DNA from: Nitrospirota bacterium
GTDB taxonomy: Bacteria > Nitrospirota > JACRHJ01
Direction: 5' to 3'
DNA: 64,000 bases
Assembly (NCBI GenBank): GCA_963845245.1
Contig: CAWJRJ010000018.1
Span: 1-64,000 of the forward strand
The notes beneath the pieces were generated by a model. That model was not told where the DNA came from and did not search any database. It saw only the letters and a list, made by a program, of their open reading frames with translations. Below, one piece after another: positions 3,368 to 22,364 of this stretch (its first letter is position 1; each line of letters starts with the position of its first letter). The position numbers and the translations under genes were made by a program.

Positions 3368-6300
3368 ATGGTATTTAAACGGATACTGGCAATACTTTTG
3401 CGCTTCCAGAAATACATCGCCGCCCTGGCGATATTCCTTGCCGTGGTCTCCGTGGCCGCGGTTATCATACTCCCGCCCATACTCAAGGACGTGCTCACAA
3501 AGAAGCTTGGCGAGGAGCTTCACCGCCCGGTCTCGATCCGTCAGATAATCATGAACCCGTTCGCCCTCTCGGTGACCGTCAAGGGCGTTGAGATAAAGGA
3601 GAAGGGCTCGCCCAAGACCTTCGTCTCCTTCGACGAGCTTTATGTCAACCTGGAGAGCGTTTCCATAGTAAAAGGCGGCTTGGTACTCAGGGAGATAAGC
3701 CTCGTCCACCCGTATGTGAACGTCAAGCGAAACTCTGACCTGTCCTATAACTTTTCAGACCTTCTGGAGAAGAAAGGGCCGCCCAAGAAAGAGTCCAAGC
3801 CGTTCAAGTTCTCTTTCAACAACATAAGCATCAAAGACGGCTCTGCGGATTTCGACGACGGCCCCAAGAAGGTGAAACACAAGGTGACCGGCGTGAACCT
3901 GTCGGTCCCGTTCGTCTCCAACCTGGACTACTACACCGACACCTACGTAAAACCTTCATTCTCGGCAATGGTGAACGGCAGACCTGTGGAGCTTAAGGGA
4001 GAGACGAAGATATTCGCTGACTCCCGCGAGACCAAGTTCAACATAAACATAGAGAACTTCAGCATACCCTATTACCTTGCTTACGTGCCGGTAAAGATGG
4101 GTTTCTCGATACCGTCCGGGCTTGTCGACATTGCGACCAGTGTTTCGTACAAACAGTTCACCGGCGGGAAGAAGCCACAGGTCGTATTGTACGGAAACGT
4201 CGCGTTGAAAAATTTTGCGGTCAATATAAACAAAGACGAGCAGGTATTAAAGCTGCCGCGTGTCGATGTATCAATCATTTCCGTACAGCCCTTTGCCAAA
4301 AGAGTAAAACTCCAGTCGGTCGTTGTTAGTTCCCCGAGCCTGATCGTCATCAGGGACGCGTCAGGTAAGCTTAACCTGCTCTCCATGCTCGGAGAAGGCG
4401 CGCCTCCCGGCCAACCCAAACCTGCGGAAAACGCCGGCGATAAACTTTCGCTCGATATTGGCACTGTAAGGCTCAAGGACGGCAACGTCTCGTTCTCAGA
4501 CCACGCTGTGCCCGGATCTTTCAAGGCGGTGCTTCAGGCCATCGACCTTACGGTTGTGAACTTCAATAACGAAAAAGGCTGGAAGACCTCCATAGAGCTG
4601 GCGCTTGGCACCGATGCCGGTGAGACCGTGAAGTTCAGTGGTGGCGTGATACTCGACCCGCTGGCGTCGGAGGGCAAGGTGGACGTGGCCAATATCCCGC
4701 TGAACAGGTACGCGCCGTACTACAGGGACGCCGTGCTGCTCGACGTCAAGGACGGCATGGCTGGGCCTTAGCACCAGTTTCAGCTATGCCAAAGGCGAAA
4801 ATGGGCCGGATGCGCGGCTGACCGACCTTTCCGTCGGCATAAAGTCGCTTGTACTTAAAAAGAGGGGTGCGGGCAGGGAGTTTTTCAAGCTGCCGGAATT
4901 GAAGATCAGCGGGACCTCATGCGACCTCGCAAAAAAAGAGGTTGTACTCGGTGAGGTGACAAGCAGTGGACGGCTTGTTGGAGGCCTCACGCCTGAAGGA
5001 CGGCAGCATTGACCTGGCCTCGCTGGTAAAGCCTTCCGCCAAAGCCCCGGCAAAGGCTCCAGCGAAGATGGAAAAGCCCTGGGATATCACAGTCAAGAGC
5101 GTATCGATCGATTCGTGGGCCTTTAACTTCAAGGACCAGGTCCCCGCTGAGCCGGTAAACGTCTCTATAAGGAAGATAAAGTTTACAGGCGAGAACCTAT
5201 CGACCGTAAAGAACGCGAAGGGTTCTCAGTCGCTTTCACTGGCCATAAACAAGAAAGGGACTCTTTCCGAGAAAGGGACAGTCAGCATTAACCCGCTGAC
5301 GGCCAACCTGAGGGTCTCGGCGAAGGGCGTCGAGATCACGCCGTTCCAGCCTTATTTCACGGACAAGGTCAGGATCGTCGTTGCCGACGGGAGCATCTCG
5401 GCGGGCGGAAGCGTCTCGGTCGCGCAGAATGCGGGCAAGTTCCGGGCCGCATACAAAGGCGATGTGTCGCTCAACAGCCTCAAGACCTTCGACAAAGAAA
5501 ATGCCGGACGAGGTCCTCAGCTGGGACTCGCTCTTTATCAAAGGCATCGATGCAGGCTACAACCCAGGCTATGCGAGGATAAAAGAGGTAGCGCTTACGG
5601 ACTTCGTCTCGAAGCTTGTCATAAACCAGGACGGCTCCCTTAATGTGCAGTCGATAGTCGTTACGGAGGAAAAACCCAAGGAGGCCGAGACAGCGCAGCC
5701 ACAGGGCCAGGCGACTTCAATAAAGCCGGTAAAGGTGGCCGGCGTCCAGCACCGCCCCTGCACAGAAGGAGCCTTTCCCCGTCAGCATAGAGAAGGTTAC
5801 GGTGCAAGGCGGGCATGTAGACTTCACGGACATGAGCGTCAAGCCCAACTATACTGCGGACCTCTCGGCATTGGCGGGCAGGGTGACCGGCTTGTCCTCA
5901 GAGGCCACGAAGATGGCCGACCTGGACTTGAAATGCATGTTCAACAACTATGCGCCATTGGAGATAACCGGCAGGATAAACCCGCTAAGGGAAGACCTCT
6001 TCGTCGATATCAAGGCAAGGTTCACGGACGTCGACTTAAGCCCGCTCACGCCGTACTCCGGCAAGTACGCCGGGTACACCATCAAGAAGGGCAAGCTATC
6101 TCTCGACCTGAAATATCTCATAGACAAAAAGAAGCTGGACTCAAGCAACGTGGTATTCCTGGACCAGTTCACCTTTGGCGAGAGGGTGGAGAGCGACAAG
6201 GCCACCAAGCTGCCTGTCAGGCTTGCAGTGGCGCTCCTCAAGGACAGGAAGGGCGAGATACACCTCGACCTTCCTGTAACGGGGCGGACTGACGACCCGA

Positions 6301-6968
6301 AGTTCCGCATAGGCGGGCTTATCTTGCAGGTGATCCTGAATATCCTGTCGAAGGCCGCTACTTCTCCCTTCGCCCTTCTGGGCGCCATCTTCGGCGGCGG
6401 CGAGGAACTGGGCTACATGGAGTACGATTACGGCAGGGCGGATTTAGGCGAAGCGGGGATAAAGAAGCTCGACACCCTGGCAAAGGCGCTCTCCGACAGG
6501 CCCGCCCTTAAGCTGTCCATCGAGGGGCATGTCGATATAGAGAAAGACAAGGAAGCCCTGAGGCAGATCATCTTCAATAGGAAGGTCAAGGCGCAGAAGC
6601 TTAAGGACATGATAAGCGAAGGGGAGAAGGCGGTGCCTGTAGACGATGTAACAGTATCTCCGGCCGAGTACGAGAAGTATCTGAGGCTCGCATACAAGGC
6701 CGAGAAGTTCCCGAAACCCAGGAACATAATCGGCTTTGCCAAAAAACTGCCCGTCCCAGAGATGGAAAAGCTGATGTTGACCAATACAGAGGTGACGGAC
6801 AGCGACCTGCGTGCGCTTGCGTCGCAACGCGCGGAAAAGGTAAGGGCGTACATAATCGGTACCGGTAAAGTCGAGTCCGAAAGGGTGTTCATGGCAGAGC
6901 CAAAGACGCTTGCCCCGGAGAAAAAGGATAACCTTAAAGACTCCCGCGCCGTGTTCATACTCAGTTAA
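3368..6968 (+). CDS. Large AsmA-like/DUF748-family envelope protein with an OmpA-like C-terminal region; split by about 5 apparent frameshifts (near 4760, 4960, 5500, 5750)
   Basis: N-terminal TM anchor, then repeated beta-rich segments typical of the AsmA/DUF748 family. The C-terminus reads ...[32 protein letters not shown]. Consecutive ORFs in three frames read as one continuous protein. Confidence 0.6.
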
Positions 6969-6987
6969 ACATAAAGGAAGGGCAGCC

Positions 6988-7419
6988 ATGCTTAAAGAGT
7001 TCAAAGAGTTCGCGCTTCACGGCAACGTCATGGATATGGCCATAGGTATCATCATCGGTGCCGCGTTCGGCAAGCTTGTCACCCTATTTGTCAGCGACGT
7101 CCTCATGCCGCCCATAGGTCTGCTCCTGGGAAAAGTGGATTTCTCCAACCTCTACATAACACTTTCCGGTAACGAGTACGAGACGCTTGCCGCCGCAAAG
7201 GCGGCCGGTGCGGTCACTATAAACTACGGCATCTTCCTGAACGCCGTGATAGATTTTACCATCGTCGCTTTTACTGTATTCCTGCTGGTGCGCTATATAA
7301 ACCGGCTGAAGAGGCCGGAGCCGGCGCCTCAAGCACCGGAGACGAAGGAATGCCGCTTCTGCTTTTCTTCGGTGCCTGCAAAGGCCTCCCGATGCCCGCA
7401 CTGCACTTCCGAAATATAA
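6988..7419 (+). CDS. mscL: Large-conductance mechanosensitive channel MscL with an unusual C-terminal CxxC-x11-CxxC tail
   Basis: The MscL N-terminus ([30 protein letters not shown]...[12 protein letters not shown]) is preceded by SD AAGGAAGGG. The protein ends ...[24 protein letters not shown]. Confidence 0.85.
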
Positions 7420-7439
7420 AAAAACATCGGAGACACGTC

Positions 7440-8843
7440 ATGGAACTGAACGCCAAGACAAAAATATCCACGATACTTGCCGCATATCCGTTCATAAAAG
7501 ACTACCTTGCAGCCATAAACCCGAGCTTCAAGGCGCTCGACAACCCGGTGATGATGAACACGCTGGGCCGCATGGCGACGCTCAGCCAGGTTGCGCTGAT
7601 GGGCGGAGTCGAGCTCGACGTGCTCATTGCCGGTATTGCGGATGAGATTAAAACGAAGACGGGGGAGGAAACAGTTACGGAATCAGATATTGTGGTGCCC
7701 GAACGGCGCCAGGAGATACTGAAGGGTATAATAAGGGACCTTCACAAGGGCGTCGATATAGACATACTGAAGAAGCGGTTTCTCAAACTTATCAAGGACG
7801 TTTCTCCCGCCGAGATCGCATCCATGGAGCAGAAGCTTATGGATGAGGGAATGCCTGAGAGCGAGGTAAAGAGGCTCTGCTCGGTGCATGTGGAGGTCTT
7901 CAGGGAGTCTCTGGAGAAGACGAAGACTATACCAGGCCTGCCTTCCGGCCACCCTGTTCATACGCTGATGCTTGAGAACAGGCACGCGGAGGGTATCCTT
8001 GAAGAGCTGGGCGCTGCAAAGGGGAACAAGGACTTGGCCGCAGTCCTTGACAGGCTGTCCGAGATAGACAAACACTACCTCAGGAAGGAACACCAGCTAT
8101 TCCCCGTCCTCGAGGCGAAAGGGATATCGGGGCCTTCGAAGGTGATGTGGTCGTTGCACGACGATATAAGGTACTTCCTGAAGGATATAAAGGCGACGGC
8201 CAAAACGGCGATGCCGACCGACAACGAGCTGAAGACGCTTGCGTTCATGATAAACGACATGATCTACAAGGAGGAGCATATCCTCTTCCCCATGGCGCTT
8301 GAGACGCTTTCGGACGACGACTGGGCAAGGGTGAAAAAGGGCGAGGAGGAGATAGGGTTCGCATGGCTTGCGTCCGCCGAACCCTTGAAGCCCTCGGGAG
8401 GGGCGCCGCTTCCGCCGCTTCCGGCGGACAGGGTAGGCAGCCTGAACCTGGATACCGGCCAGGTGACGCCCGAGCAGGTCAATCTTATGCTCACACACCT
8501 GCCCGTGGACGTCTCTTTCGTGAACGAGAACGACGAGGTGATATATTACTCGCAGACAAAGGAGAGGATATTCCCGAGGAGCCCCGGCATAATAGGGCGC
8601 AAGGTCCAGAACTGCCACCCGCCCAAGAGCGTGCACGTCGTGGAGGCCATACTGGACGCCTTCAAGAAGGGCGAGAGGGACGTCGCCGAGTTCTGGCTCC
8701 AGATGAAGGGCCGGTTCATCCATATCAGGTATTTCGCCGTCCGGGACGAAGCAGGGACGTACAGAGGCACACTTGAAGTCAGCCAGGACGTGACGGAGAT
8801 ACGGGCCCTGAGCGGCGCCAGAAGATTGCTGGAATGGGATTAG
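7440..8843 (+). CDS. DUF1858/hemerythrin-like/DUF438 protein with a C-terminal PAS domain
   Basis: N-terminal DUF1858-like segment (ISTILAAYPFIKDYLAAINPSF), a central His/Glu-rich hemerythrin-like region, and a C-terminal PAS-like fold (VNENDEVIYYSQTKERIFPRSPGIIGRKVQNCHP...). Confidence 0.6.
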   Translation: MELNAKTKISTILAAYPFIKDYLAAINPSFKALDNPVMMNTLGRMATLSQVALMGGVELDVLIAGIADEIKTKTGEETVTESDIVVPERRQEILKGIIRDLHKGVDIDILKKRFLKLIKDVSPAEIASMEQKLMDEGMPESEVKRLCSVHVEVFRESLEKTKTIPGLPSGHPVHTLMLENRHAEGILEELGAAKGNKDLAAVLDRLSEIDKHYLRKEHQLFPVLEAKGISGPSKVMWSLHDDIRYFLKDIKATAKTAMPTDNELKTLAFMINDMIYKEEHILFPMALETLSDDDWARVKKGEEEIGFAWLASAEPLKPSGGAPLPPLPADRVGSLNLDTGQVTPEQVNLMLTHLPVDVSFVNENDEVIYYSQTKERIFPRSPGIIGRKVQNCHPPKSVHVVEAILDAFKKGERDVAEFWLQMKGRFIHIRYFAVRDEAGTYRGTLEVSQDVTEIRALSGARRLLEWD

Positions 8844-8904: not shown

Positions 8905-8960
8905 TTATGAGCACCTCGTAATGCGGCCCACCTCTGCAAACGGGGTGGGCTTTTTTATTA
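8905..8960 (+). ncRNA. Two-hairpin element ending in an intrinsic-terminator-like structure (leader or small-RNA candidate)
   Basis: GGTGCTtatattttatgAGCACC, then GCCCACCtctgcaaacGGGGTGGGC followed by TTTTTTATT. It lies 20 nt before the SD/ATG of the next gene. Confidence 0.3.
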
Positions 8961-8978
8961 ATCTTGGGGGAGGTACCT

Positions 8979-11072
8979 ATGGACGGCCTTATAGGGTTTT
9001 ATGCAGTTTATCTTTATGTTTTGGCAGTTGCTGTAATTATCTTCCTGATCTATAAATCCATAGTCATAGTAGGAGGCACGGAACTCGCTGTTCTGGAGAG
9101 GAAATATTTTGGAAGAAAGATGCCTCAGGGAAGGGTAATCGCCATGGGCGACGAGGTCGGCGTGCAGGCCGGTACCCTCGGGCCGGGCATGCATTTCCTC
9201 ATCCCGTTCCTCTATACCGCCAGGAAGCACCCTTTCACCAGTATAGGAGAGGACGAGATAGGCCTGATAGAGTCGATAGACGGGAATCCCGTGCCTCCGG
9301 GCAAGATATTCGCCAAGGTAGTGGAAGGCCACAACTCCTTCCAGGACGGGGAGGCGTTTCTTGCCAACAGCGGTGAGAAAGGCCCTCAAATACAGATACT
9401 GCCTCCGGGCTCATACAGGATAAACCCGGTCCTCTTTAACGTCATAATTGACGAGTCGGTGATAATAGACAAAGGCAAGGTAGGGCTGGTGACATCCATG
9501 GACGGCAAGCCCATCCCTTCGGGAAGGCTTCTGGCCAGCCATCTTGACGGCCACGCCAACTTCGAGGACGGGCAGGCCTTCCTGAACAACGGAGGACAGA
9601 AAGGCCCGCAGATAGACATACTCCTTCCGGGTACGTACAGGATAAACAAGTCGTTATTCAGGGTGGAGATAGTGGAGGCGACTGTTATCCCGGCGAACAA
9701 GGTCGGGCTTGTCACCGCGCTCGACGGTGCGGTTCTGCCGGAAGGCGAGTACGTCTCAACCTCTGTGACCGGCCACAACGACTACCAGAACGCATCTATG
9801 TTCCTCGACGCGGGTGGCCAGCGCGGCCCGCAGTTCGACGTCCTGCGCCCGGGCACGTACTACATAAACCCGATGATGTTCAAGGTGGAGCTGGACGACG
9901 TCGCCGTTATCGAGAGGGGCCAGGTCGGTGTTGTAGTGTCAAACGTCGGGCGTGAACCGTCGTCGGTCAGGGCGGCAGTGGAGGAGAAGGGCGAGACTGA
10001 GAAAGTGGCCGATGCCGCCGCAGCCAACATCGACGGGAGGCTGGACAAGGGGCTTGAAAGGTACGTCGTAACCAAGGGCTTCAGGGGCATACAGCAGGAG
10101 GTGGTCGGGCCGGGCAGGTATTACCTTAACAGGCGCGCATACATCGCCTACATCATAGACACCACCAATATAACGATAGATTGGGAGAATTCGAAAGAAA
10201 CCCGGTTCGACACCCTGAAGGTAATCTCGAAGGATGGCTTCCCAATCGATGTTTCTGTAAAGGTGGTGGTAAGGATAAGGCCCGATCAGGCGCCGTACAT
10301 GGTGGCAAAGATCGGCTCGATAGACAACCTCATCCTACATGTTATCCACCCGATGATCGATTCCAGTTTCAGGAACCAGGCGTCGTCCACCTCGGCCATG
10401 AATTTCATGCAGGACCGCCAGGAGGAGCAGAAGAAGGCCGAGGACAGGACGAAGATGGAACTCGACAAATACCACGTCGAATGCGTCTCGGTCCTGATAT
10501 GTCAGATAAACCTGCCGCAGGAGCTGATGGATACACAGACCAAGAAGATTATCGCGGAGCAGCAGCGCGCCATGTTCGAAGCCGAACAGCAGGCCGAGCA
10601 GACGAGGATCGCCACGGAGAAGACCCGAGCGGAGGCCAACCAGCAGTCCGCGCTCGTGGCCGCGGAGATCGGCGTGAAGGTCGCCGAGCAGAACAAGCAG
10701 CAGGCGATAAAATTTGCGGAAGGCGAGGGTGAGAGCCTCAGGCTGAAGGCGCAGGGCGAGGCAGCCGGCATAAAGGCGAAGGGCGATGCCGAGGCCTCAA
10801 GGATACTAGCGATAGGCAAGTCCACGGCCGAGGCATACGAGCTTCAGAACAAGGCCATAGGCCAGCAGGGCGTTACCGCAATAGAGATAGCCAAACAGAT
10901 AGCATCCGGCAAAGTCAAGATAACCCCGGACCTCCTCGTCCAGGGAGGCGACAACATGGGCGGGCTGATGTCGGCGTTCATGTCCCAACTTATAACGGGC
11001 GGTGTGTCGGCTCCGGTCAAAAAGCCCGCGCCCGCTGTCGTGCCGGGAGTAGAAAGCCCCGCCGTCAATTAA
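8979..11072 (+). CDS. Flotillin-like SPFH/band-7 membrane protein with three inserted tandem repeats of about 65 aa
   Basis: N-terminal TM, then the start of an SPFH domain, then 3 repeats sharing VG(L/V)V...DG...P.G...GH..(F/Y).(D/N)..(A/S)(F/M)L..GG.(K/R)GPQ...(I/V)L.PGTY.IN...F.V, then a canonical SPFH core. The tail is flotillin-type and Ala/Glu/Gln-rich (AEQQRAMFEAEQQAEQTRIATEKTRAEANQQ). Confidence 0.7.
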   Translation: MDGLIGFYAVYLYVLAVAVIIFLIYKSIVIVGGTELAVLERKYFGRKMPQGRVIAMGDEVGVQAGTLGPGMHFLIPFLYTARKHPFTSIGEDEIGLIESIDGNPVPPGKIFAKVVEGHNSFQDGEAFLANSGEKGPQIQILPPGSYRINPVLFNVIIDESVIIDKGKVGLVTSMDGKPIPSGRLLASHLDGHANFEDGQAFLNNGGQKGPQIDILLPGTYRINKSLFRVEIVEATVIPANKVGLVTALDGAVLPEGEYVSTSVTGHNDYQNASMFLDAGGQRGPQFDVLRPGTYYINPMMFKVELDDVAVIERGQVGVVVSNVGREPSSVRAAVEEKGETEKVADAAAANIDGRLDKGLERYVVTKGFRGIQQEVVGPGRYYLNRRAYIAYIIDTTNITIDWENSKETRFDTLKVISKDGFPIDVSVKVVVRIRPDQAPYMVAKIGSIDNLILHVIHPMIDSSFRNQASSTSAMNFMQDRQEEQKKAEDRTKMELDKYHVECVSVLICQINLPQELMDTQTKKIIAEQQRAMFEAEQQAEQTRIATEKTRAEANQQSALVAAEIGVKVAEQNKQQAIKFAEGEGESLRLKAQGEAAGIKAKGDAEASRILAIGKSTAEAYELQNKAIGQQGVTAIEIAKQIASGKVKITPDLLVQGGDNMGGLMSAFMSQLITGGVSAPVKKPAPAVVPGVESPAVN

Positions 11073-11103: not shown

Positions 11104-11137
11104 GGAACGGGGTTGCGGTATCCTGCAACCCCGTTCC
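11104..11137 (+). terminator. Terminator-like hairpin after the flotillin-like gene (13-bp stem, weak U-tract)
   Basis: GGAACGGGGTTGC-ggtatcct-GCAACCCCGTTCC. Confidence 0.35.
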
Positions 11138-11400
11138 TCCGTTCGAGCTCTTGAGTCAAGAAAATGGCTGATATCATTAAAAGATATTAATATTGCGGCC
11201 TCGAGCCGTTTTTTTTTTCGGCAGGCCATCTCCGGCTAATATTGCAATTAAATCAATAGCATAATCTGGCTATTAATATATCGGTTAATCAGTGATAGCC
11301 TATACCGTATGTTACCTAACCGATTCACTTTATTTAATAATTTGACATTAATATAAATGAGGTATATTTTTGCACATTATTTTATATACAGGAGATAACG

Positions 11401-11782: not shown

Positions 11783-12467
11783 ATGCCCGACTTATCCGTT
11801 TCCGAAAAACCGACCATCCTGATAATCGAAGATTCAATCGACCTGGTCGAGCTATTGAAGCGCCGCTTTGAGTCTGAACATAACCTTTATTACACCCAGG
11901 ACGGCAGCGAGGGCATAAGGCTGTCCAAGGAGCTCAAGCCGGACATAATCCTGCTGGATGTAAACCTGCCGCGCGTTAACGGATTCGATGTATTGAAGGA
12001 GATACGGGTCGCGGACTCGGCGCGGAAGATAGTGGTGCTGATGATAACCGGCCTTTCGGACCCGGACAACATAGTTAAGGCGCTCAGCCTGGGGGCCGAC
12101 GACTATATCATCAAGCCGTTCAACCTGATGGAGTTGTCCGCGCGCATAAAGTCCCACCTTACTATAAAACATCTCCAGAGACAGATTGTAGGCGTGGAGA
12201 GGCTGAATATCCTCCGGGAGGTGGCAGTCAGCTTCAACCACGAAATAAACAACCCGCTCATGTCCATCTCAACTTTTGCATCTTTCCTTAAAAGAGAACT
12301 CGAAGGTTCAAGCGATGAGGCGAAGGAGAGCGTCGAGGGAATACTGGAGGAAGTGGAGCAGGATCGCTGACATAGTAAAGAAGCTTTCCGCGGCGACAAG
12401 GGCCGCCTCTATTGAATATGGCCCCGGAATCAACATGATCGACTTCGAGCACTTGACGGATGATTGA
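11783..12467 (+). CDS. Response-regulator receiver fused to a HisKA (DHp) domain without an ATPase domain; apparent frameshift near 12360
   Basis: The REC domain (ILIIEDS...DIILLDVNLP...GADDYIIKPF) is followed by the H-box SFNHEINNPLMSISTFASFL. The ORF ends at 12467 with no HATPase_c region. Confidence 0.55.
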
Positions 12468-15149
12468 GAAACTGAAATATCCCGGCCGCATACTTATAGC
12501 GGAAGACGAAGACTCTTTAAGAGAGGCACTTGTAGTATTCCTGAAGTCCAGGGGATATGTCACAGCCGAGGCTGCAGACGGTATCACCGCCTTTGAGATG
12601 GCAGGCCTCTCCAGCTATGACCTCCTCATCACTGACCTGAACATGCCGGGGATGTCCGGTGAAGAACTCTTGGACAAGATGGACGAACTTGAATTTGAAC
12701 GGCGTCCTGCGGTAGTGGTGATGACGGGACATAGCACTCTGGACTCCGCGATCAAAGGCATTAATGCCGGGATTAGCGCCTATATCAGGAAGCCGCTTAA
12801 CCTTGTCGAGATAGAAACTTCGATAAAGACGGCCATCGAGAGGCGGAGGCTGGAGAAGGAACTCAGGGGCTATTACAGGGATCTCGACCGCAAGGTGGAG
12901 GAACGCACGCGGGAGCTCTCCCTGATAAACAAGTTCTCGGCCCTGATAAACAGCTCTTTCTCCCTTGAGAAAATACTCGAAGATGCCGTCGAAGACCTTG
13001 TAAAGTCAATGGAAGCCGATGCTGCATGGATATACCTCTCTGAAGGCAAGCCTCCGCTTTACAGGTTGAAGGCGAGCAGGGGTCTTTCAAAAAGTTTCAT
13101 CGGGGCTGCATCATCGATAGACCCAAAGGCCTTTGCCTCCGTTTCCGGCAGGATGGACGGCCCGGCTTCGATGCTTTGCAACGGCCCGCTTCCTCCCGGT
13201 GCCCCTATTTCCGAAGCAGTGCAAGCGGCGGGTTTCACTTCGGCCGTGCATGCCTCCATCCAGTCCGGCAGGCTCCGCATCGGAAGCATGGGAGTGGCGT
13301 CGAAGACCGGTAAACAATTCCAGGAATCCCACCTGCAGCTCATAGCATCCTTCGGAAACCACATCGGCATCGCGATAGAGAAAATAAGGCTTTACCAGAA
13401 AGAGAAGGCAATATCCAAGGACCTTGAGAAGAAGGTCAACCAGCTCCTTGTCATGAACTGGATGGGAAACAGGGCGAGGGTGTCAAAGGGTCTTGAAGAG
13501 ACCGGGAAGATGCTCGTGTCGTCGATAGCCGAAGCGCTCGGCTTTGACAGGGTCTGTCTCTGGGTATTCGACAAGGATGGGCGCACGCTTTACCTCAAGG
13601 CATGCCACGGTTTGGATGCGAGTTTGTATCGCGACTCATGCCGCGTGGACAGTTCTAAAATAACCTCTTTCAGCCTGGACAGGGGAGAGGCTGTGCTGGT
13701 GACAAGCTCGTTCTGTTCCTTCTCGGACGCAAAGGAGATCTTTGGGAGCATCAGGGAGACTGTCGTCGCGCCCCTTGTCGTGCGTAGCGACAAAGGGGGC
13801 GGAACTCAACTGCTGGGAGCATTTCAACTGCGGGCAGAGTTCCTGCAGCGCATACATGAACAGCGGACTCGCCTGCTGGACTCTTACAGAAAGCTGTATG
13901 AAGACGTCCGAAAGGATGAACCTCCTTGACAAGATGGAGGTCTGCAAAAAGTGCGATGTGTACCAGACGAATACGAGCGGCAAGGGGATCGGGCTGATAT
14001 GCGCAGACAACAGCATCGGTGGCAAAGAGATAACCGGCGATGACGTAAAAGTACTGAACGTATTTGCAAACTCTGCCGCGGCCATAATAGAAAACATGAT
14101 GCTGATGGAGAAGCTCCTTGATGACGAGCACTTCATCGACGGCATGATAACCAACATGTCATCCGGCCTGCTTGTGACGGACATTGACGGAAGGGTCAGG
14201 ATCCTGAACAATGCGGGCGCAGAGATATTGAGGACCGAAAGGGAGTCGCTTGAGGGGCAGTTGCTGGCGGACGTCTACCCGGAGGCCGAGGCAATGCTGA
14301 ACATAGTCGGCTCAAAACTCGGCCGCGAAATGGATATTGATGACTCCGGACGGCATGGTGCCTGTCGGTTTTACCAATTCATACCTTGTGGAAAAGGACG
14401 GGACTGACGGCGGCGTCATAGTCGTATTCAAGGACTTGAGCGATATAAGAAAACTTCACGAACAGCTCAGGGAAAGGGAACACTTCTCGGCTATCGGCAA
14501 GGTGGCCGCGGGCGTCGCCCACGAGATACGCAACCCGCTGTTCGGGATAACCTCGGTAGCCCAGATACTCGGGAGGGAGATAAAGGACGATACGCCGCAG
14601 AAGGCGCTTATCGACGCCATGCTCTCAGAGACTTCCAGGCTCAACACCCTTGTAGAGGACATGCTGCTCTACGGCCGTTCAACGAAACTGTCGCCTCAAC
14701 CGGTTGACCTCAACGAACTGATTGAGGGCGTTGTTCGCTTCCACCAGGGCGGTATAACCGAGAAGGGCTTGAAGATACTGAATAATTTTGACAAGGAGCT
14801 GCCCCAGCTAATGCTGGACCAGGGACAGATGAAACAGGTCTTCCTTAACCTTCTTGTCAACGCGGTCGATGCGTCCGTAACGGGCGGCGAAATAATAGTG
14901 AGGACAGGCGTCAAGGGAGAGTCCGCAGTTATAGAGATCGCCGACAACGGGGTGGGTATCCCCGTAGACGACGTCCCTAAGGTGTTCGACCTGTTTTATA
15001 CCACCAAGGAAAAGGGCACCGGGCTCGGGCTCGCCATATGCAGAAAGATTGTCGAGGACCACGGCGGTACCGTTACCATTTCGAGCATGCCCGGGAAGGG
15101 CACATCGATCCGGATAAGACCTACCGTTACAGGCGGCCAGGGTCAGCGG
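12460..15149 (+). CDS. Hybrid sensor histidine kinase: REC-GAF-GAF(with Cys-rich insert)-PAS-HisKA-HATPase; frameshifts near 13797 and 14340; no in-frame stop before the downstream activator
   Basis: N-terminal REC (RILIAEDEDS...DLLITDLNMPGMSG) and two GAF-like regions. The second GAF contains CWEHFNCGQSSCSAYMNSGLACWTLTESCMKTSERMNLLDKMEVCKKCDVYQ. A PAS domain follows, then HisKA (AGVAHEIRNPLFGI) and HATPase (DNGVGIP...GTGLGLAICRKIVEDHGG). Confidence 0.7.
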
Positions 15150-16498
15150 TTGAACAGGACGCTGCTTATCATAGACGACGAAAAGTCTGTCCGCCAGTCT
15201 CTCCGGTATATGTTCAAGAACAAGGGCTACGATATCCATGAGGCCGGCAATGCGGCCGAAGGGGTCGCGGCCGCAAAAGCCGTCCAGCCTGACCTCGCCA
15301 TACTTGACTACAGGCTTCCCGACAAGACAGGCCTCGACGCGCTGGCCGAGTATAAAGGACGCCGCCCCCGACTGCCTTGTCATCATGCTGACCGCTTACG
15401 GGAGCATCCCGGACGCGGTTGTAGCGATGAAAAAAGGCGCCTTCGACTACCTGACCAAACCCGTAGACATCGACATGCTTGAGATAGCCGTGGAAAGGGC
15501 CGCCGGGGTCAGGCTTCTAAAACAGGAAAACGACAACCTGAAAAGCCTGAGCAGGCATGGCCCCGGAAGGGATCATCGGCGAATCGATGGAGGTCCACAA
15601 GCTGCTGCTCATAATAGGGATACTGGCCGAGAACAAGGACACCACCGTCCTCATCGAAGGCGAGTCCGGCACCGGCAAGGAACTGGTCGCAAAGAACATC
15701 CACAATATGAGCGCGCGCAGGGGAAGCCCTTTCGTGGACATCAACTGCGCGTCCCTTTCCGAGAACCTCCTGGAGTCCGAGCTGTTCGGGCACGAAAAAG
15801 GCTCGTTCACGGATGCAAAAGAGGCGAAGAAGGGGCTGGTCGAGATAGCGAACGGCGGCACGCTTTTCCTTGATGAGATAGGCGAGCTTTCGCCTTCCCT
15901 CCAGCCGAAGCTTCTTGAGGGTGCTTGAGACAAAGACGTTCCGCCGGGTAGGGGGGGTCAAGGATATAAAGGTCGACGTCAGGTTCGTGGCTGCCACGAA
16001 CCGCGACCTCGCTGAAGCGGTGGCTGCGAAGCAGTTCAGGGAGGACCTGTACTACCGTCTGCGCGTCATGCCCATCACGATACCCCCGCTGCGCGAAAGG
16101 GGAAAGGATGTACTGGTGCTTGCAAGGCATTTCGTGTCGCTTTTCTCCCGCGGCCTCAAGAAAGATGATCGAGGGGATCTCGCCGGAGTGTGAACCGTTG
16201 CTCCTTTCATATGGCTGGCCGGGCAACATCAGGGAGTTGAAGAACGTCATGGAACGTGCCGTGATCCTTGCCTCCGGCCCGTATATAATGCCTGAACACC
16301 TTGCCCGTGAGCTTACCGACCTCGCGTCTTCCGGCCCGAAGAGCAGGACTGCCGTCCCAAGCCTTGATAGAGATGGAAGCAAAACACATAACAGCGGTAC
16401 TCACAAGCGCCGGCAATAACCACTCTGAGGCCGCAAGGGCGCTAGGCATAAGCCGCACGACCCTCCTGGCAAAGATCAAAAAATTCCGCCTCGACTGA
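15150..16498 (+). CDS. Sigma54-dependent transcriptional activator (NtrC family: REC-AAA+-Fis HTH); about 4 apparent frameshifts; a TTG start is assumed
   Basis: REC ([14 protein letters not shown]...[14 protein letters not shown]), then the AAA+ sigma54-interaction domain ([34 protein letters not shown]), then a C-terminal HTH ([22 protein letters not shown]). It is in the same frame as the upstream kinase, with no stop between them. Confidence 0.7.
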
Positions 16499-17506: not shown

Positions 17507-19186
17507 TTGGAAGAATTCGATACTTCCGGTCTTATACAAGAATACATCGACGACGCCAGGGGGCATCTTGAAAAGCTGGACTCTACGCTCCTTGAGATCG
17601 AGAAAGAGTCGGGCCAGGGGTTAGATGTTGAACTTGTCTCAGACCTGTTGGGCGCGCTTCACACCCTGAAGGGAAATTCGGGGATGATGGGTTTTGAGTC
17701 CCTCCAGAAATACGTCCATGAGCTGGAGAGCGTATTCAAATCACTCCTCGAAGGGAAAAACGGGCTGGATGAGGCGTTCCTGCAGACTCTTTTCGAGGCT
17801 GCCGGTTCTATCCGCGAGACCCTTGAACAGATCGAACGAGACCCGAAGTCCCAACCGGACCTCACCGCGCAAAAGCGCGTCCTTGAAGGACTTGCGGCCA
17901 ACGGCACCACGGGCCAGGCAAAGGCCCCAGCCTCGCCGCAGAAGGTAGACAGCTTTAAATACATAGCAGAAAAATCCAACATATTAAAAGTCGACTTCGA
18001 GCGGCTCGACCACCTTCTGAACCTTGCAGGCGAACTCGTGATACACAGGACGAAGCTTTCGCAGGTCGAGAAAAAGTTCAAGGAGCTGAAGGCCGAAAAG
18101 GAACTTGCCGCAGAGCTGACCGAAGCCAACTTCCTTATACAGAAGGCGGTAACAGAACTCCAGGAAGCGATAATGAAGGTCAGGATGCTTCCTGTACGCC
18201 ATGTATTCCAGCGTTTCCCCAGGATGGTCCGGGACCTCGCAAGGGAACGCGGCAAGGAAATCGAGATAATCTTCAAGGGCGAATCCACCGAACTCGACAA
18301 GACGGTCATCGACGAGATAGGCGAACCACTCCTCCACCTTATCAGAAACTCGGTGGACCACGGGATAGAGATGCCCGATGAACGTGTCAGGAAGAACAAG
18401 TCGCCGGTAGGCGAGATCGTGCTTTCCGCGGCCCAGGAAGGAAACAACATAATCATAACGGCGTCCGATAATGGCGCCGGCATCGACGTGGAGTCGGTCA
18501 GGGCCAAGGCCGCCCACATGTATACCGAGGAATCCCTCGAAGGCATGGCGGAGGATAACGTCCTCGACCTGATATTCGAGCCGGGTTTTACCACCGCAAG
18601 CGAAGTTACCCAGATATCCGGACGCGGCGTCGGGCTCGACGTCGTACGAAAGAGCGTATCGAACCTCGGCGGGATCGTGGAGGTTGCAAGCCAGCGTGGC
18701 ACAGGCACTACTTTCACCATCAAGCTTCCGCTCACCCTGGCGATCATATCGGCACTGCTGGTAAAAGGCGGAGACGAACTGTATGCGCTTCCGCTCTCCT
18801 CTGTTATCGAAAGCCTGAGGTTGGAGCCGTCCGAGTTGCAGACCGTGAACAACCGGGAGGTCATAATGCTCAGGGACAGGGTTCTCCCGCTCGTGCGCCT
18901 TTCTGAACTCTTCCACATTGAAAAGGCGCATGACCTGGGCCGCCTTTATGTCGTTGTCGTTGGCAGGGCCGAAAAAAAGGTCGGGCTTGTCGTGGACTCG
19001 CTCATGGGAAGACAGGAGATAGTCATAAAGACGCTTGGCGATTATGTCGGGGAGAACGCCGGGATTGCCGGCGCCACCATACTCGGAGACGGAAGCGTAG
19101 TGCTTATACTTGATGTCGCGGGCCTTATCGAGAAAAACATGCTCAAGGCCGACAGGAGAAGTTCGATATACAAGGAGGTGACGTAG
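17507..19186 (+). CDS. cheA: Chemotaxis histidine kinase CheA (TTG start)
   Basis: Hpt domain (HTLKGNSGMMGF), dimerisation region, HATPase (DNGAGID, GRGVGLDVV), and a C-terminal CheW-like domain. Confidence 0.9.
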   Translation: MEEFDTSGLIQEYIDDARGHLEKLDSTLLEIEKESGQGLDVELVSDLLGALHTLKGNSGMMGFESLQKYVHELESVFKSLLEGKNGLDEAFLQTLFEAAGSIRETLEQIERDPKSQPDLTAQKRVLEGLAANGTTGQAKAPASPQKVDSFKYIAEKSNILKVDFERLDHLLNLAGELVIHRTKLSQVEKKFKELKAEKELAAELTEANFLIQKAVTELQEAIMKVRMLPVRHVFQRFPRMVRDLARERGKEIEIIFKGESTELDKTVIDEIGEPLLHLIRNSVDHGIEMPDERVRKNKSPVGEIVLSAAQEGNNIIITASDNGAGIDVESVRAKAAHMYTEESLEGMAEDNVLDLIFEPGFTTASEVTQISGRGVGLDVVRKSVSNLGGIVEVASQRGTGTTFTIKLPLTLAIISALLVKGGDELYALPLSSVIESLRLEPSELQTVNNREVIMLRDRVLPLVRLSELFHIEKAHDLGRLYVVVVGRAEKKVGLVVDSLMGRQEIVIKTLGDYVGENAGIAGATILGDGSVVLILDVAGLIEKNMLKADRRSSIYKEVT

Positions 19187-19347
19187 TTGCAGACCCCCGA
19201 CCAGACCCAAAAAGATAGTCCTGCCCTCGTCCGGGCTTGCGGAAGACATACTTGCATCGGTTGCAGGGGTCCAGGGTCTGGCCGAGGCGCAGGCCGCAGC
19301 CATGAAAATTACCCGGACGGCCAAGGAAGAAGCCGACGTGGACGATC

Positions 19348-19779
19348 TTGCACCTTGTAAGCTTCTTGTTGAACAGCGAAGAGTACGCCCTCGATATCTC
19401 GCTGGTCCAGGAGATCATCAAGCTCAGCGGATGGACCAGGGTGCCGAATGCCCCGCGCCACGTAAAGGGCGTCATAAACCTACGCGGGAGAATAATCCCA
19501 GTAGTCGACCCGAAGCTGAAGATGGGGCTCCACGAGTCGCCGCTTGACGGCCGGAATGCCAGGATAATAATAGTCGAGACCGGCGGCCGGGTGATCGGTA
19601 TGGCCGTCGATTCGGTCAACCAGGTACTGAAGCTCCCTGCTGACGTCATAGAGCCCCCGCCGGATACGGTAACAGGGGTGGACGACGGATATATCAAAGG
19701 CGTCGGAAAGCTGTCCGGCAGGATAATAATACTCTTAAACGTTGATAAGGTTTTGGGGAAAGACGAAAAGGCGGCCTGA
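19348..19779 (+). CDS. cheW: Chemotaxis coupling protein CheW (TTG start; the N-terminus may extend upstream via a frameshift)
   Basis: CheW fold motifs: EEYALDISLVQEI, VINLRGRIIPVVD, RIIIV, GMAVDSVNQV. Confidence 0.8.
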   Translation: MHLVSFLLNSEEYALDISLVQEIIKLSGWTRVPNAPRHVKGVINLRGRIIPVVDPKLKMGLHESPLDGRNARIIIVETGGRVIGMAVDSVNQVLKLPADVIEPPPDTVTGVDDGYIKGVGKLSGRIIILLNVDKVLGKDEKAA

Positions 19780-19817
19780 CGAAGGTCTGGTAACGCGTTC
19801 AAAAAAGGAGAAACCCG

Positions 19818-22364
19818 ATGTTCAGAAATCTCAAGATAGGCATACGGCTGGCGATGGCTTTCGGCGTTGTTTTGTTGCTCCTGGCGCTGGTGTCCTGGGA
19901 GGGCCTGCACAGCATGGGCATCATGGACACTGCTGCCATGCACATAGTAAAGAAAAATTACGCCAGGGGAGTGGTTCTCGAACATGCAAATGAGAACCTG
20001 AACGAAATGTACCAGTCTCTTTCGGTTATCATGTCAAGCCGCGACAAGGGCGAGCAGCTAAAAAAGGTCAAGGACCTTGAAACGTCCAGGAAAAACTTTA
20101 ATGACGCGATGGACATTTACGAGAAGACCCAGGACCATCAAGAAGGCCTCGATATGCTCGCAAAGTTTAAAGCGGTTTTAAGTGAATCAATAAAGCCCAT
20201 GGACGAAGTGATAAAACTGTCCCTTGCCAACAAGCCTGAAGATGCAAGGCTTCTTTATCTGAATAAAGTCGAGCCGCAGCAGCACGAAGTACGCAATGTG
20301 TTCGACCCGATGGTGGTATTTGAAGAGCAGAGGATAGACTTCCGCTACAAGCAGACGGTAGACGAATACAGAAGCAGTATCAAGATGATGCTGTTGGTCG
20401 GCGGGATAGCCATAGTCCTTGTAGTTATAATGAGCTTCTTCCTGACCAGGGGTATAACCAAACCGCTCGAAGCTGCGCTCAAGGTGGCCAACAAGGTGTC
20501 TGACGGCGACCTCACCGCCTCGATTGCGGTAAGGTCAAAGGACGAGGTCGGGCAGCTGGGCGATGCCATCAACCGTATGGTGGCGGGACTAAAGGAGATG
20601 GTCGGCACCGTCAACCAGAGCGCTGCCCAGGTGGCTGCCGCCGCCGACCAGGTCAACGCAAGCTCCCACCAGATACAGAAGGGCGCTCAGACTCAGGCGA
20701 GCGCGGCTGACGAGACGTCTTCTAGCATGGAAGAGATGGCGGCCTCCATACAGATGGTCGCCCAGAACGCCGGCGACCTCGCCTCGAACGTGGACGAGAC
20801 CTCGGCTTCGATAAACCAGATGGTCGCATCCATCGAGCAGGTCGCCAGGAACTCCGGCGCAATGGCCTCGTCCGTATCCGAGACCTCCGCGACTGTCGAG
20901 CAGATGGCCGCGTCGATAGACCAGGTTGCAAACGATACGGAAAACCTTTCGGCATCCGTGCAGGAGACATCCGCCACCATCGACCAGATGATGGCATCAA
21001 TCGAACAGGTCGCCAGAAACTCAGACATGCTCTCCGGTACCGTGGCCGAGACGTCCTCGACCGTAGAGGAGATGGCCGCGTCTATCAAACAGGTGGCGGG
21101 CAACGTAGCCGAAGCCGGCCGTATATCCCAGAAGGCAGCCGAGGATGCGGTCGCGGGCGGCGAGGCTGTCGAGCTTACCATCGAGGGCATAAACCGCATA
21201 GCCGATACCATGAAGGTGACCTCGGAAGTGATAGGCAGCCTTGGTAGACGCTCTGAAGAGATAGGCAAGATCATAGGCGTGATTGAGGATATAGCAGACC
21301 AGACCAACCTCCTCGCGCTGAACGCGGCGATAGAGGCTGCCAGGGCTGGTGATGCGGGGCGCGGCTTTGCCGTGGTCGCCGATGAGGTGCGGAAACTGGC
21401 TGAGAGGTCTGTCGTAGCCACCAAGGAGATTGGTGAGGTGATAGAGCAGGTGCAGCTTGAGACCTCGAAAGCCGTTAAAACAGCCGAGGTGGGCGCTGCC
21501 GAAACGCTGGAAGGCAAGAAGCTGGCGGACAAGGCTGGGGCGTCCCTGAAGCGTATCCTCGACAGCGTTGGGGCCACGAACCAGATAATGGCGGAGATAA
21601 ACGATGCGGCCGCCGAGCAGTCATCCGCCGCAAACATGGTGCTCAAGTCCGTGGAGAACATGAACCAGGTCACCGACCAGGTTATAACCGCAGTCAAAGA
21701 GCAGGCGATGGGCTCGAACCAGATAAGGAAGGCCGTAGAGACTATGAACCGCACCACCCAGCAGGTAGCAGGCGCCATGAAGGAGCAGGCTATGGGCGGA
21801 AAGCAGATAAGGGTCGCGGTCGAGGACATGAACAGGGTGACGAACGAGGTGAACATAGCCGCCAAGGAACAGGCGCAGGGCACCGTGCAGATAATGAAGG
21901 CGGTCGAGAATATGAACTCGATGACCCAGCAGGTCGCGAACGCCACCTCTGAGCAGAAGCGCGGCGGAGAACTTGTAGTCAAGGCCGTCGAGAACATCTC
22001 GGACATAGCCCGCGAGAACCTCGCTGCCGTGAAGCAGATGACCGCCGCCTCTGAGAACATCACCTTCCAGGCCGAGTCGCTCCAGCGCGCCATAAGCATG
22101 TTCAAGGTGAGTGACTTGAGCTCGGTCCAGGCCTGCTGGGATATCCTGAACTGCGACATGGCAAACCGGATGAAATGCCCGGCCTACAAGAGCCCCGAGA
22201 AGAGGTGCTGGCTGATAGAGGGCACATGGTGCAAGGGCGTCTTGCAGGGCGACGCGAGGAGCAAGCTGGCGAACTGCATGCACTGCAATGCGTTCAAGGT
22301 CATGCAGGGTGTGAGCTCCCTGCCTGCGGCGAACGTCCGCTCGATAGGCAGCGACAGGTCTTAA
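19818..22364 (+). CDS. Methyl-accepting chemotaxis protein with an extended signalling domain and a C-terminal 7-Cys module
   Basis: TM1, a periplasmic 4-helix-bundle-like region, TM2, and HAMP. The MA domain is very long, with tandem 21-aa repeats ([21 protein letters not shown] x4; AxKEQAxGxxQIxKAVExMN x4) and the [14 protein letters not shown] core. The C-terminus reads [54 protein letters not shown]. Confidence 0.9.

Follow-up and report, generated by a model that had tools for sequence, protein, structure and literature searches.

[quoted passage not shown] Along the chain, a membrane helix comes first and five SPFH1-type modules follow, of which two are degenerate; behind these lie the SPFH2 core, a helix some 100 residues long and a C-terminal segment that is conserved. 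The gene lies in a stretch of 64,000 nucleotides from a Nitrospirota bacterium (contig CAWJRJ010000018.1), which was analysed as a whole and is referred to as the window.

Gene, domain layout and tandem repeats

The likely start codon of the gene is the ATG at position 8979, since the Shine-Dalgarno-like GGGGGAGG lies 5 nt upstream and the resulting length agrees with that of the database protein P0001 (697 aa), which is 100% identical to the product made from this ATG. Residue numbers nevertheless refer throughout to the 702-aa form that begins at TTG, not to the 697-aa form. The terminator-like hairpin in front of the gene would close the preceding gene and thereby separate the two; as terminator-like hairpins are found on both sides, the gene for the SPFH protein looks monocistronic. 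All features are compiled in Table 1.

Table 1. Positions of the SPFH-protein gene, its flanking signals and the parts of its product within the window
Feature	Positions	Strand	Basis and remarks
Terminator-like hairpin and T-run upstream of the SPFH-protein gene	8925..8961	+	10-bp stem with 7 GC pairs, then TTTTTATT
Shine-Dalgarno-like GGGGGAGG	8966..8973	+	5 nt upstream of ATG; read from sequence
SPFH-protein gene	8979..11072	+	697 aa; ORF listing begins at TTG 8964, giving 702 aa
N-terminal transmembrane helix, aa 6-32	8979..9059	+	AF2 helix, pLDDT ~85; hydrophobicity of homologs
R0, first, degenerate SPFH1-type module, aa 33-98	9060..9257	+	Weak similarity to R1-R3 (z 3-5); motif GDEVGVQAGTLGPGMHF
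Repeat R1, aa 99-172	9258..9479	+	Self dot-plot, alignment, hhalign; AF2 pLDDT >90
Repeat R2, aa 173-246	9480..9701	+	Self dot-plot, alignment, hhalign, AF2
Repeat R3, aa 247-320	9702..9923	+	Self dot-plot, alignment, hhalign, AF2
R4, last SPFH1-type module, degenerate, aa 321-412	9924..10199	+	Repeat HMM match aa 367-402; hhalign
Pfam Band_7 (SPFH) match, aa 365-546	10056..10601	+	PF01145, E 6.8e-24, 85.3 bits vs cutoff 23.6
Long Ala/Glu/Gln-rich helix, aa 524-631	10533..10856	+	AF2 secondary structure, pLDDT 50-70
C-terminal region, aa 632-702	10857..11069	+	Conserved V.ITPD.LVQGG segment, then Pro/Ala-rich tail
Terminator-like hairpin and T10 downstream of the SPFH-protein gene	11195..11219	+	Sequence scan

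An earlier inspection of this DNA, here called the sequence-only reading, had proposed three tandem repeats of about 65 aa. A self dot-plot scored with BLOSUM62 confirms the three copies: apart from the main diagonal, its strongest signals lie 74 and 148 aa off. The repeat motif had been written correctly, whereas the period is in fact 74 aa and the proposed boundaries were off by about 30-40 nt. R1, R2 and R3 can be aligned without gaps, with pairwise identities of 39/74, 32/74 and 29/74 (39-53%). In local alignments they score 178-216 and shuffled versions 23-25 ± 4-5 (z = 35-39); at the DNA level the copies are only 54-62% identical. Therefore, the repeats are real, old and in frame.

The array is flanked by two further, degenerate copies, which the sequence-only reading had recognised only in part. 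R0 and R4 align in register with R1-R3 (z-scores 3-8), and hhalign gives E-values from 1.5e-5 to 0.03 overall. These lie between 1.5e-5 and 2.7e-4 for the pairs R0-R1, R2-R4 and R3-R4, where the alignment covers the shared pattern G..G.Q...(L/V).PG.(Y/H); for example, residues 31-63 of R0 are aligned to residues 39-71 of R1 with E 1.7e-4, and R3 matches R4 with E 1.5e-5. R1-R3 are whole extra modules: R0, itself complete, precedes them as the first module, and R4 closes the series. The proposal that an N-terminal SPFH element has been duplicated is supported by the hhalign matches of R0 and R4 to the repeats, but the copies are entire modules and not an insertion into a split hairpin.

The Band_7 profile match begins within R4, at aa 365, and the SPFH2 core comprises approximately aa 413-523. 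R4 carries a helical insertion of about 35 aa at aa 333-367, the helices being taken from a low-confidence AF2 model. A complete SPFH core followed by a helical tail had been predicted as well, and both are found, the helix again in the low-confidence model. In this model the helix of about 100 residues could be the counterpart of the coiled-coil wall or cap helix; its profile match to the helix region of erlin-2 is weak (E about 0.09). In the C-terminal region K652, T654, P655, D656, L658 and G661 are invariant in an alignment of 62 homologs, and this region would act as the cap.

The best-conserved segment of the repeats is the loop GH.(N/D)FQ(D/N)..FL..GGQ(K/R)GPQ, which together with a short helix sits between the first and second strands of each repeat. 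An alignment of 47 sequences with 36-74% identity to the query shows no or hardly any variation in its G, F and Q columns and in the G.G.Q columns; cyanobacterial-type relatives have Cys instead of His at the GH position (VVECNNFQD). Such strong conservation would be surprising in a loop of a mere spacer. The modules may thus have a binding function as well, or touch each other laterally at specific sites.

Predicted fold of the repeats

The AF2 monomer model of the full-length protein, based on 62 close homologs, is poor (pLDDT 53). It was used for secondary structure only and never for fold searches, and because of its quality the R0-R1 and R3-R4-SPFH2 junctions as well as the C-terminal cap are only tentative. 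A second AF2 model covers aa 86-335 and was calculated from a diverse alignment of the three-repeat segments of relatives (36-74% identical to the query). This model reaches a pLDDT of 94.3 and a pTM of 0.86, and in it each repeat consists of about five strands and one short helix.

When the aa 86-335 model was submitted to Foldseek, the top 14 matches were all vault structures. [quoted passage not shown] Therefore, the three modules superpose on three consecutive MVP repeats, and the rod-like stacking is common to both proteins in addition to the fold. The predicted model thus shows both the MVP-repeat fold and a linear stacking of modules.

In MVP, the repeats R1-R9 are homologous to SPFH1, the shoulder to SPFH2, and the cap helix to the SPFH coiled coil (PMC12915596, PMC11348225). 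The predicted fold together with the published equivalence of MVP repeat and SPFH1 (PMC12915596) supports the view that SPFH1 has been duplicated here in an MVP-like manner. Sequence comparisons do not place the protein in the MVP family. Neither the query protein nor 47 segments of its family matched Pfam Vault-repeat or MVP-shoulder at E<=1, and the repeat matches no Pfam family, the hits to CshA_repeat and comparable entries being weak and below threshold. For a direct comparison we used human MVP residues 1-549, which were checked to be identical to PDB 11dr_A. Against this sequence a HMMER profile of 470 distinct family repeats scored 0.3 bits, with shuffled sequences reaching 4.7, and the hhalign match of the family repeat was not significant (probability 7.7%, P 0.0045). 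PDB sequences were also searched, with profiles of the repeat and of the family and with the protein itself, and gave no useful match. The MVP-like layout put forward by the sequence-only reading accordingly stands as far as predicted fold and stacking are concerned, but membership in the MVP family does not follow from sequence.

Family, copy number and gene context

A whole-protein search retrieved more than 4000 clusters at 90% identity, and the best 120 homologs all carry PF01145. The order R1-R2-R3 is retained in 107 of these 120, which we take as supporting evidence that the array is under selection. A further nine homologs carry four copies and another three carry five; the additional copies are always of the R1 type. 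One homolog possibly has an extra R3-type copy. P0004, P0010 and P0003 are natural variants with three, four and five copies. When 1.84 billion representatives were searched with a three-repeat profile, 1230 clusters (50% identity) were found at E<=1e-3, of which 611 remained at E<=1e-10.

The survey of homologs that had been suggested revealed variation in repeat number: 83 complete-looking representatives, drawn from the top 150 matches and thus biased to high copy number, have 2-13 copies, apart from one single-copy form. An N-terminal hydrophobic helix is present in 62 of them and lacking in 21. The longest members (P0121, P0122 and P0123) have 11-13 repeats as well as Band_7, and their long helical region is accompanied by a VWA domain at the C-terminus; P0122 has no membrane helix. 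The 13-repeat protein P0121 (1802 aa) comes from Symploca sp. SIO2E6 (NET58509.1).

The reference genomes yielded 364 loci. Nitrospirota MAGs stand nearest (81% identity); other loci, down to 57%, belong to Ignavibacteria, Acidobacteriota, Bacteroidota, Spirochaetota, Bacillota (Sporomusa, Pelosinus), Geobacteraceae, Nitrotoga, Methylobacter and Oligoflexia. Homologs in cultivable bacteria include those of Sporomusa silvacetica DSM 10669, Solidesulfovibrio aerotolerans DSM 16695 and Geomesophilobacter sediminis. Identities of 57-81% across phyla suggest a strong constraint and probably reflect horizontal transfer. The annotations of homologs are generic ('SPFH domain-containing protein', 'YqiK', 'HflC'); JGI calls them 'uncharacterized membrane protein YqiK', which is a source annotation only. 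A full-text search found no published description of this repeat family, which does not prove that there is none.

Upstream in the window the gene is accompanied by MscL and a DUF1858/DUF438/hemerythrin/PAS protein, downstream by a small ribbon-helix-helix protein and signalling genes. When the ORFs of about 80 related loci were clustered, no neighbour recurred at a constant position, and even the most widespread was shared by at most 12 loci. Since there is no conserved partner among these loci, the adjacency of MscL is probably coincidental, and the surroundings of the gene point to no client. PADLOC defence-system profiles matched neither the window protein nor the 13-repeat relative P0121.

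Among the best 120 homologs, the 19-residue window of highest hydrophobicity has a mean value of 2.57. The 15 residues before the membrane helix contain on average 0.09 Lys+Arg and the 15 residues after it 3.12; in 117 of the 120, the C-terminal flank carries more of these residues. By the positive-inside rule, this charge bias suggests that the bulk of the protein is cytoplasmic.

Proposed role of the modules and comparison with known systems

In the solved SPFH proteins and in MVP, laterally packed chains form rings, with the SPFH modules as the lower wall and a dome that is closed by helices and C-termini (PMC11348225, PMC12915596, PMC12624060). The simplest reading is that the protein described here does likewise: many chains would pack into a ring anchored in the membrane by their N-terminal helices, with a stiff beta-wall made of the stacked modules and a dome closed by the helices and C-termini. 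The extra modules would then serve as spacers that lift the SPFH2 ring and the roof away from the membrane, by inserting three to four wall layers between the two; from vault dimensions we estimate a gain in height of 2-3 nm per module. In this way a taller space would be enclosed above a patch of membrane, most likely on its cytoplasmic face. We infer the ring assembly, the orientation and the spacer function, as well as a client enclosed in the chamber.

Among the competing explanations, a rather unlikely one, which is still the best of them, regards the repeats mainly as binding modules that show the GH..FQD...FL..GGQKGPQ loop to a ligand, a lipid head group, a metal or a client, so that copy number would set valency and not height. 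It draws on the facts that the loop with its short helix is the best-conserved part of the repeat and is absent from the MVP repeat of about 55 aa, and that His is replaced by Cys at the GH position in cyanobacterial-type relatives. However, no similarity to known binding domains was found, the conservation of the loop fits lateral ring contacts equally well, as in the vault wall, and binding is compatible with a spacer role. We give far less credit to an extracytoplasmic location, with the protein facing the periplasm or the cell surface and the repeats serving as a stalk of adhesin or Ig type, like those of surface proteins. In its favour one can cite CshA_repeat, matched weakly and below threshold by 22 of the 47 repeat segments (best E 1.7e-6), matches to Big_14, and a peptidoglycan-binding motif in the relative P0148.

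Equally improbable is a true orthologue of MVP, or a eukaryotic-type MVP acquired horizontally, that would form a free, closed vault. The domain order is the same, the predicted repeat fold matches, and some bacteria are reported to possess bona fide MVP homologues (PMC3762200; bioRxiv 10.1101/872010), among them H6L4P8 of Saprospira and A9AUD4 of Herpetosiphon (PMC3762200). The missing matches to the Pfam vault and MVP-shoulder families, the 0.3 bits and 7.7% probability obtained with human MVP, the repeat length of 74 instead of about 55 aa, the N-terminal membrane helix and the direct Band_7 match all argue against it. Finally, the generic database names of the homologs are all that speaks for an ordinary part of an SPFH protein or a recent or artefactual duplication without function. 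That the region might be an ordinary SPFH subdomain had been raised in advance, and we consider this whole explanation refuted: Band_7 covers aa 365-546 only, the DNA copies have diverged to 54-62% identity, and each copy is conserved in a position-specific manner in 107 of the 120 best homologs from many phyla.

Going beyond the spacer function of the single protein, one may speculate that the family of 1230 clusters is a bacterial counterpart of the vault lineage that builds tall, vault-like shells by multiplying SPFH1; we hold this to be a tentative and rather doubtful extension. At one end of the range would stand membrane-attached half-shells of 2-6 modules, like the one encoded in the window, at the other end forms of 11-13 modules. 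Some of these long forms lack a membrane helix and some have VWA, and such forms could be free or double-shelled particles. The array could have arisen independently of MVP by convergence, or from a shared ancestor beyond the reach of sequence methods.

It is only recently that the vault and the SPFH cages (HflK/C, flotillin, stomatin, prohibitin, erlin) came to be seen as a single architectural family. SPFH1 multiplication, the step that separates the vault from an SPFH cage, is present and still varying, through duplication of one particular module, in an abundant bacterial family, whose natural series of 2-13 copies permits a test of how module number relates to cage height and volume. Beyond that, the family supplies candidates for vault-like particles in prokaryotes, and its repeat is a new one, absent from present domain databases. 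If the speculation is true, it would provide a prokaryotic model for the evolution of the vault from SPFH cages, the prokaryotic ancestry of the vault having been described as unclear (PMC12962969).

Compared with known SPFH proteins, the protein has the customary layout of N-terminal anchor, SPFH1-type modules, SPFH2 and long helix. It shares with YqiK/FloT (COG2268) the N-terminal anchor, the Band_7 core and the long Ala/Glu/Gln-rich helical region. In the E. coli and B. subtilis sequences of YqiK/FloT, SPFH1 occurs only once. The layout is therefore unlike the usual one, as noted before, and the relatives carry 2-13 copies. No flotillin-specific profile was matched in Pfam or NCBIfam; Band_7 is the only significant Pfam match, a hit to Pertactin being sub-threshold (E 0.14). 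A partner gene of the NfeD/YqiJ type is absent from the window, and none was found in about 80 related loci. Two NCBIfam models of the HflC/HflK group gave 12.8 and 14.3 bits, far below their cutoffs of 134.4 and 427, and no FtsH-type partner gene lies near the gene. HflK/C, prohibitin, erlin, stomatin and QmcA (PDB 7vhp, 9o9z, 9o9u, 9oh9, 8z5g) have one SPFH1 per chain, and Hinderhofer et al. (PMC2636767) make no mention of such repeats.

With MVP (PDB 3gf5, 4v60, 6bp7) the protein has in common the repeat array, the SPFH-type shoulder, the long helix and a C-terminal segment. The two differ in the length of the repeat (about 55 aa in MVP, 74 aa here), as the GH...GPQ loop and the short helix have no counterpart in the shorter MVP repeat, and in the number of modules, which is nine in MVP and three clear plus two degenerate ones here. 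In addition, it is Band_7, and not MVP_shoulder, that matches the core. MVP forms a free, two-halved particle, whereas the N-terminus here is a predicted transmembrane helix, which is at odds with a soluble closed particle and would give a membrane-attached half-shell.

Further parallels come from archaea, for which MVP homologues with five repeats in Asgard archaea (PMC12962969) and 'MVP repeat + SPFH' proteins (PMC13607799) have been reported. Like the protein described here, these have MVP-type modules, one to five in the archaeal proteins, followed by an SPFH domain and a helix; they were identified by reciprocal structural or sequence matches to MVP. By description, the present family differs from them in being bacterial and mostly membrane-anchored, in having its own 74-aa signature and in reaching up to 13 copies. 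A succession of several SPFH1 modules, SPFH2 and a coiled coil is already known from the vault; what is new here is an abundant, mostly anchored Band_7 family with a 74-aa signature of its own outside Pfam and a variable copy number.

Conservation across phyla

Members of the family of SPFH proteins that carry the 74-aa repeat share 57-81% identity (e.g. L001-L080, the loci of relatives in reference genomes) across phyla as distant as Nitrospirota, Bacteroidota, Bacillota and Oligoflexia, an unusually high figure for SPFH proteins. The SPFH2 region contains long invariant stretches (HVIHPMIDSSFRNQASSTSAMNFMQDRQEEQ). Together, the cross-phylum identity and these stretches suggest that the family has spread horizontally and that the protein's surface is under very strong constraint.

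Surroundings of the SPFH gene

The two genes directly upstream (see table) are probably neighbours by coincidence, since their pairing with the SPFH gene is not conserved among 78 related loci. The adjoining mscL gene is still notable, because a link between SPFH proteins and mechanosensitive channels has been made.

Features around the SPFH gene
Feature	Position	Strand	Remark
DUF748/AsmA-like region, two matching ORFs	3368-6968	+	profile match at both profile ends
MscL mechanosensitive channel gene	6910-7419	+	directly upstream of SPFH gene
DUF1858/DUF438/hemerythrin/PAS sensor protein gene	7350-8843	+	directly upstream of SPFH gene
GC-rich inverted repeat, near-perfect (GGAACGGGGTTGC ... GCAACCCCGTTCC)	11104-11137	+	about 30 nt past SPFH stop codon
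Small stand-alone ORF, 62 aa	11401-11589	+	sub-cutoff ribbon-helix-helix match
Receiver domain, then partial HisKA	11783-12370	+	HisKA incomplete
Receiver-GAF protein	12460-13929		downstream of partial-HisKA ORF
HisKA/HATPase/receiver protein	14337-15482		downstream of partial-HisKA ORF
CheA-type kinase	17507-19186	+	chemotaxis cluster
Methyl-accepting chemotaxis protein, 4HB_MCP sensor	19818-22364	+	chemotaxis cluster

Farther upstream, one ORF (3368-4771, +) covers positions 13-371 of the 1037-position DUF748/AsmA-like profile and another (5802-6968, +) covers positions 676-1037, with overlapping ORFs in other frames between them (4966-5643 and 5381-6292). The region looks like a single large AsmA-like gene broken by frameshifts, and would therefore be a pseudogene or an assembly error.

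On the 3′ side, the inverted repeat lacks a T-run behind it; the T-rich terminator-like site, at 11195-11209, is a separate element. The small ORF matches Pfam 56B_RHH with an E value of 7e-6 and 26.3 bits, slightly under the 27.2-bit cutoff, and the AT-rich spacer 5′ of it holds a good sigma-70-like promoter match (11342-11370). In the ORF with the partial HisKA, the stop is reached after only the first part of that domain, and this ORF may represent a hybrid kinase that has been truncated or frameshifted. The chemotaxis cluster of the window spans 17507-22364 (+).

Long and helix-less relatives

Three relatives from outside the window, P0121 (1802 aa; Symploca sp. SIO2E6, NET58509.1), P0122 (1793 aa) and P0123 (1638 aa), contain 11-13 tandem copies of the family repeat. 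After these come Band_7, then an extended helical region and, at the C terminus, a von Willebrand A domain. An N-terminal hydrophobic helix is absent from several relatives, namely P0122, P0127, P0133 and P0139, which may therefore be soluble and more vault-like.
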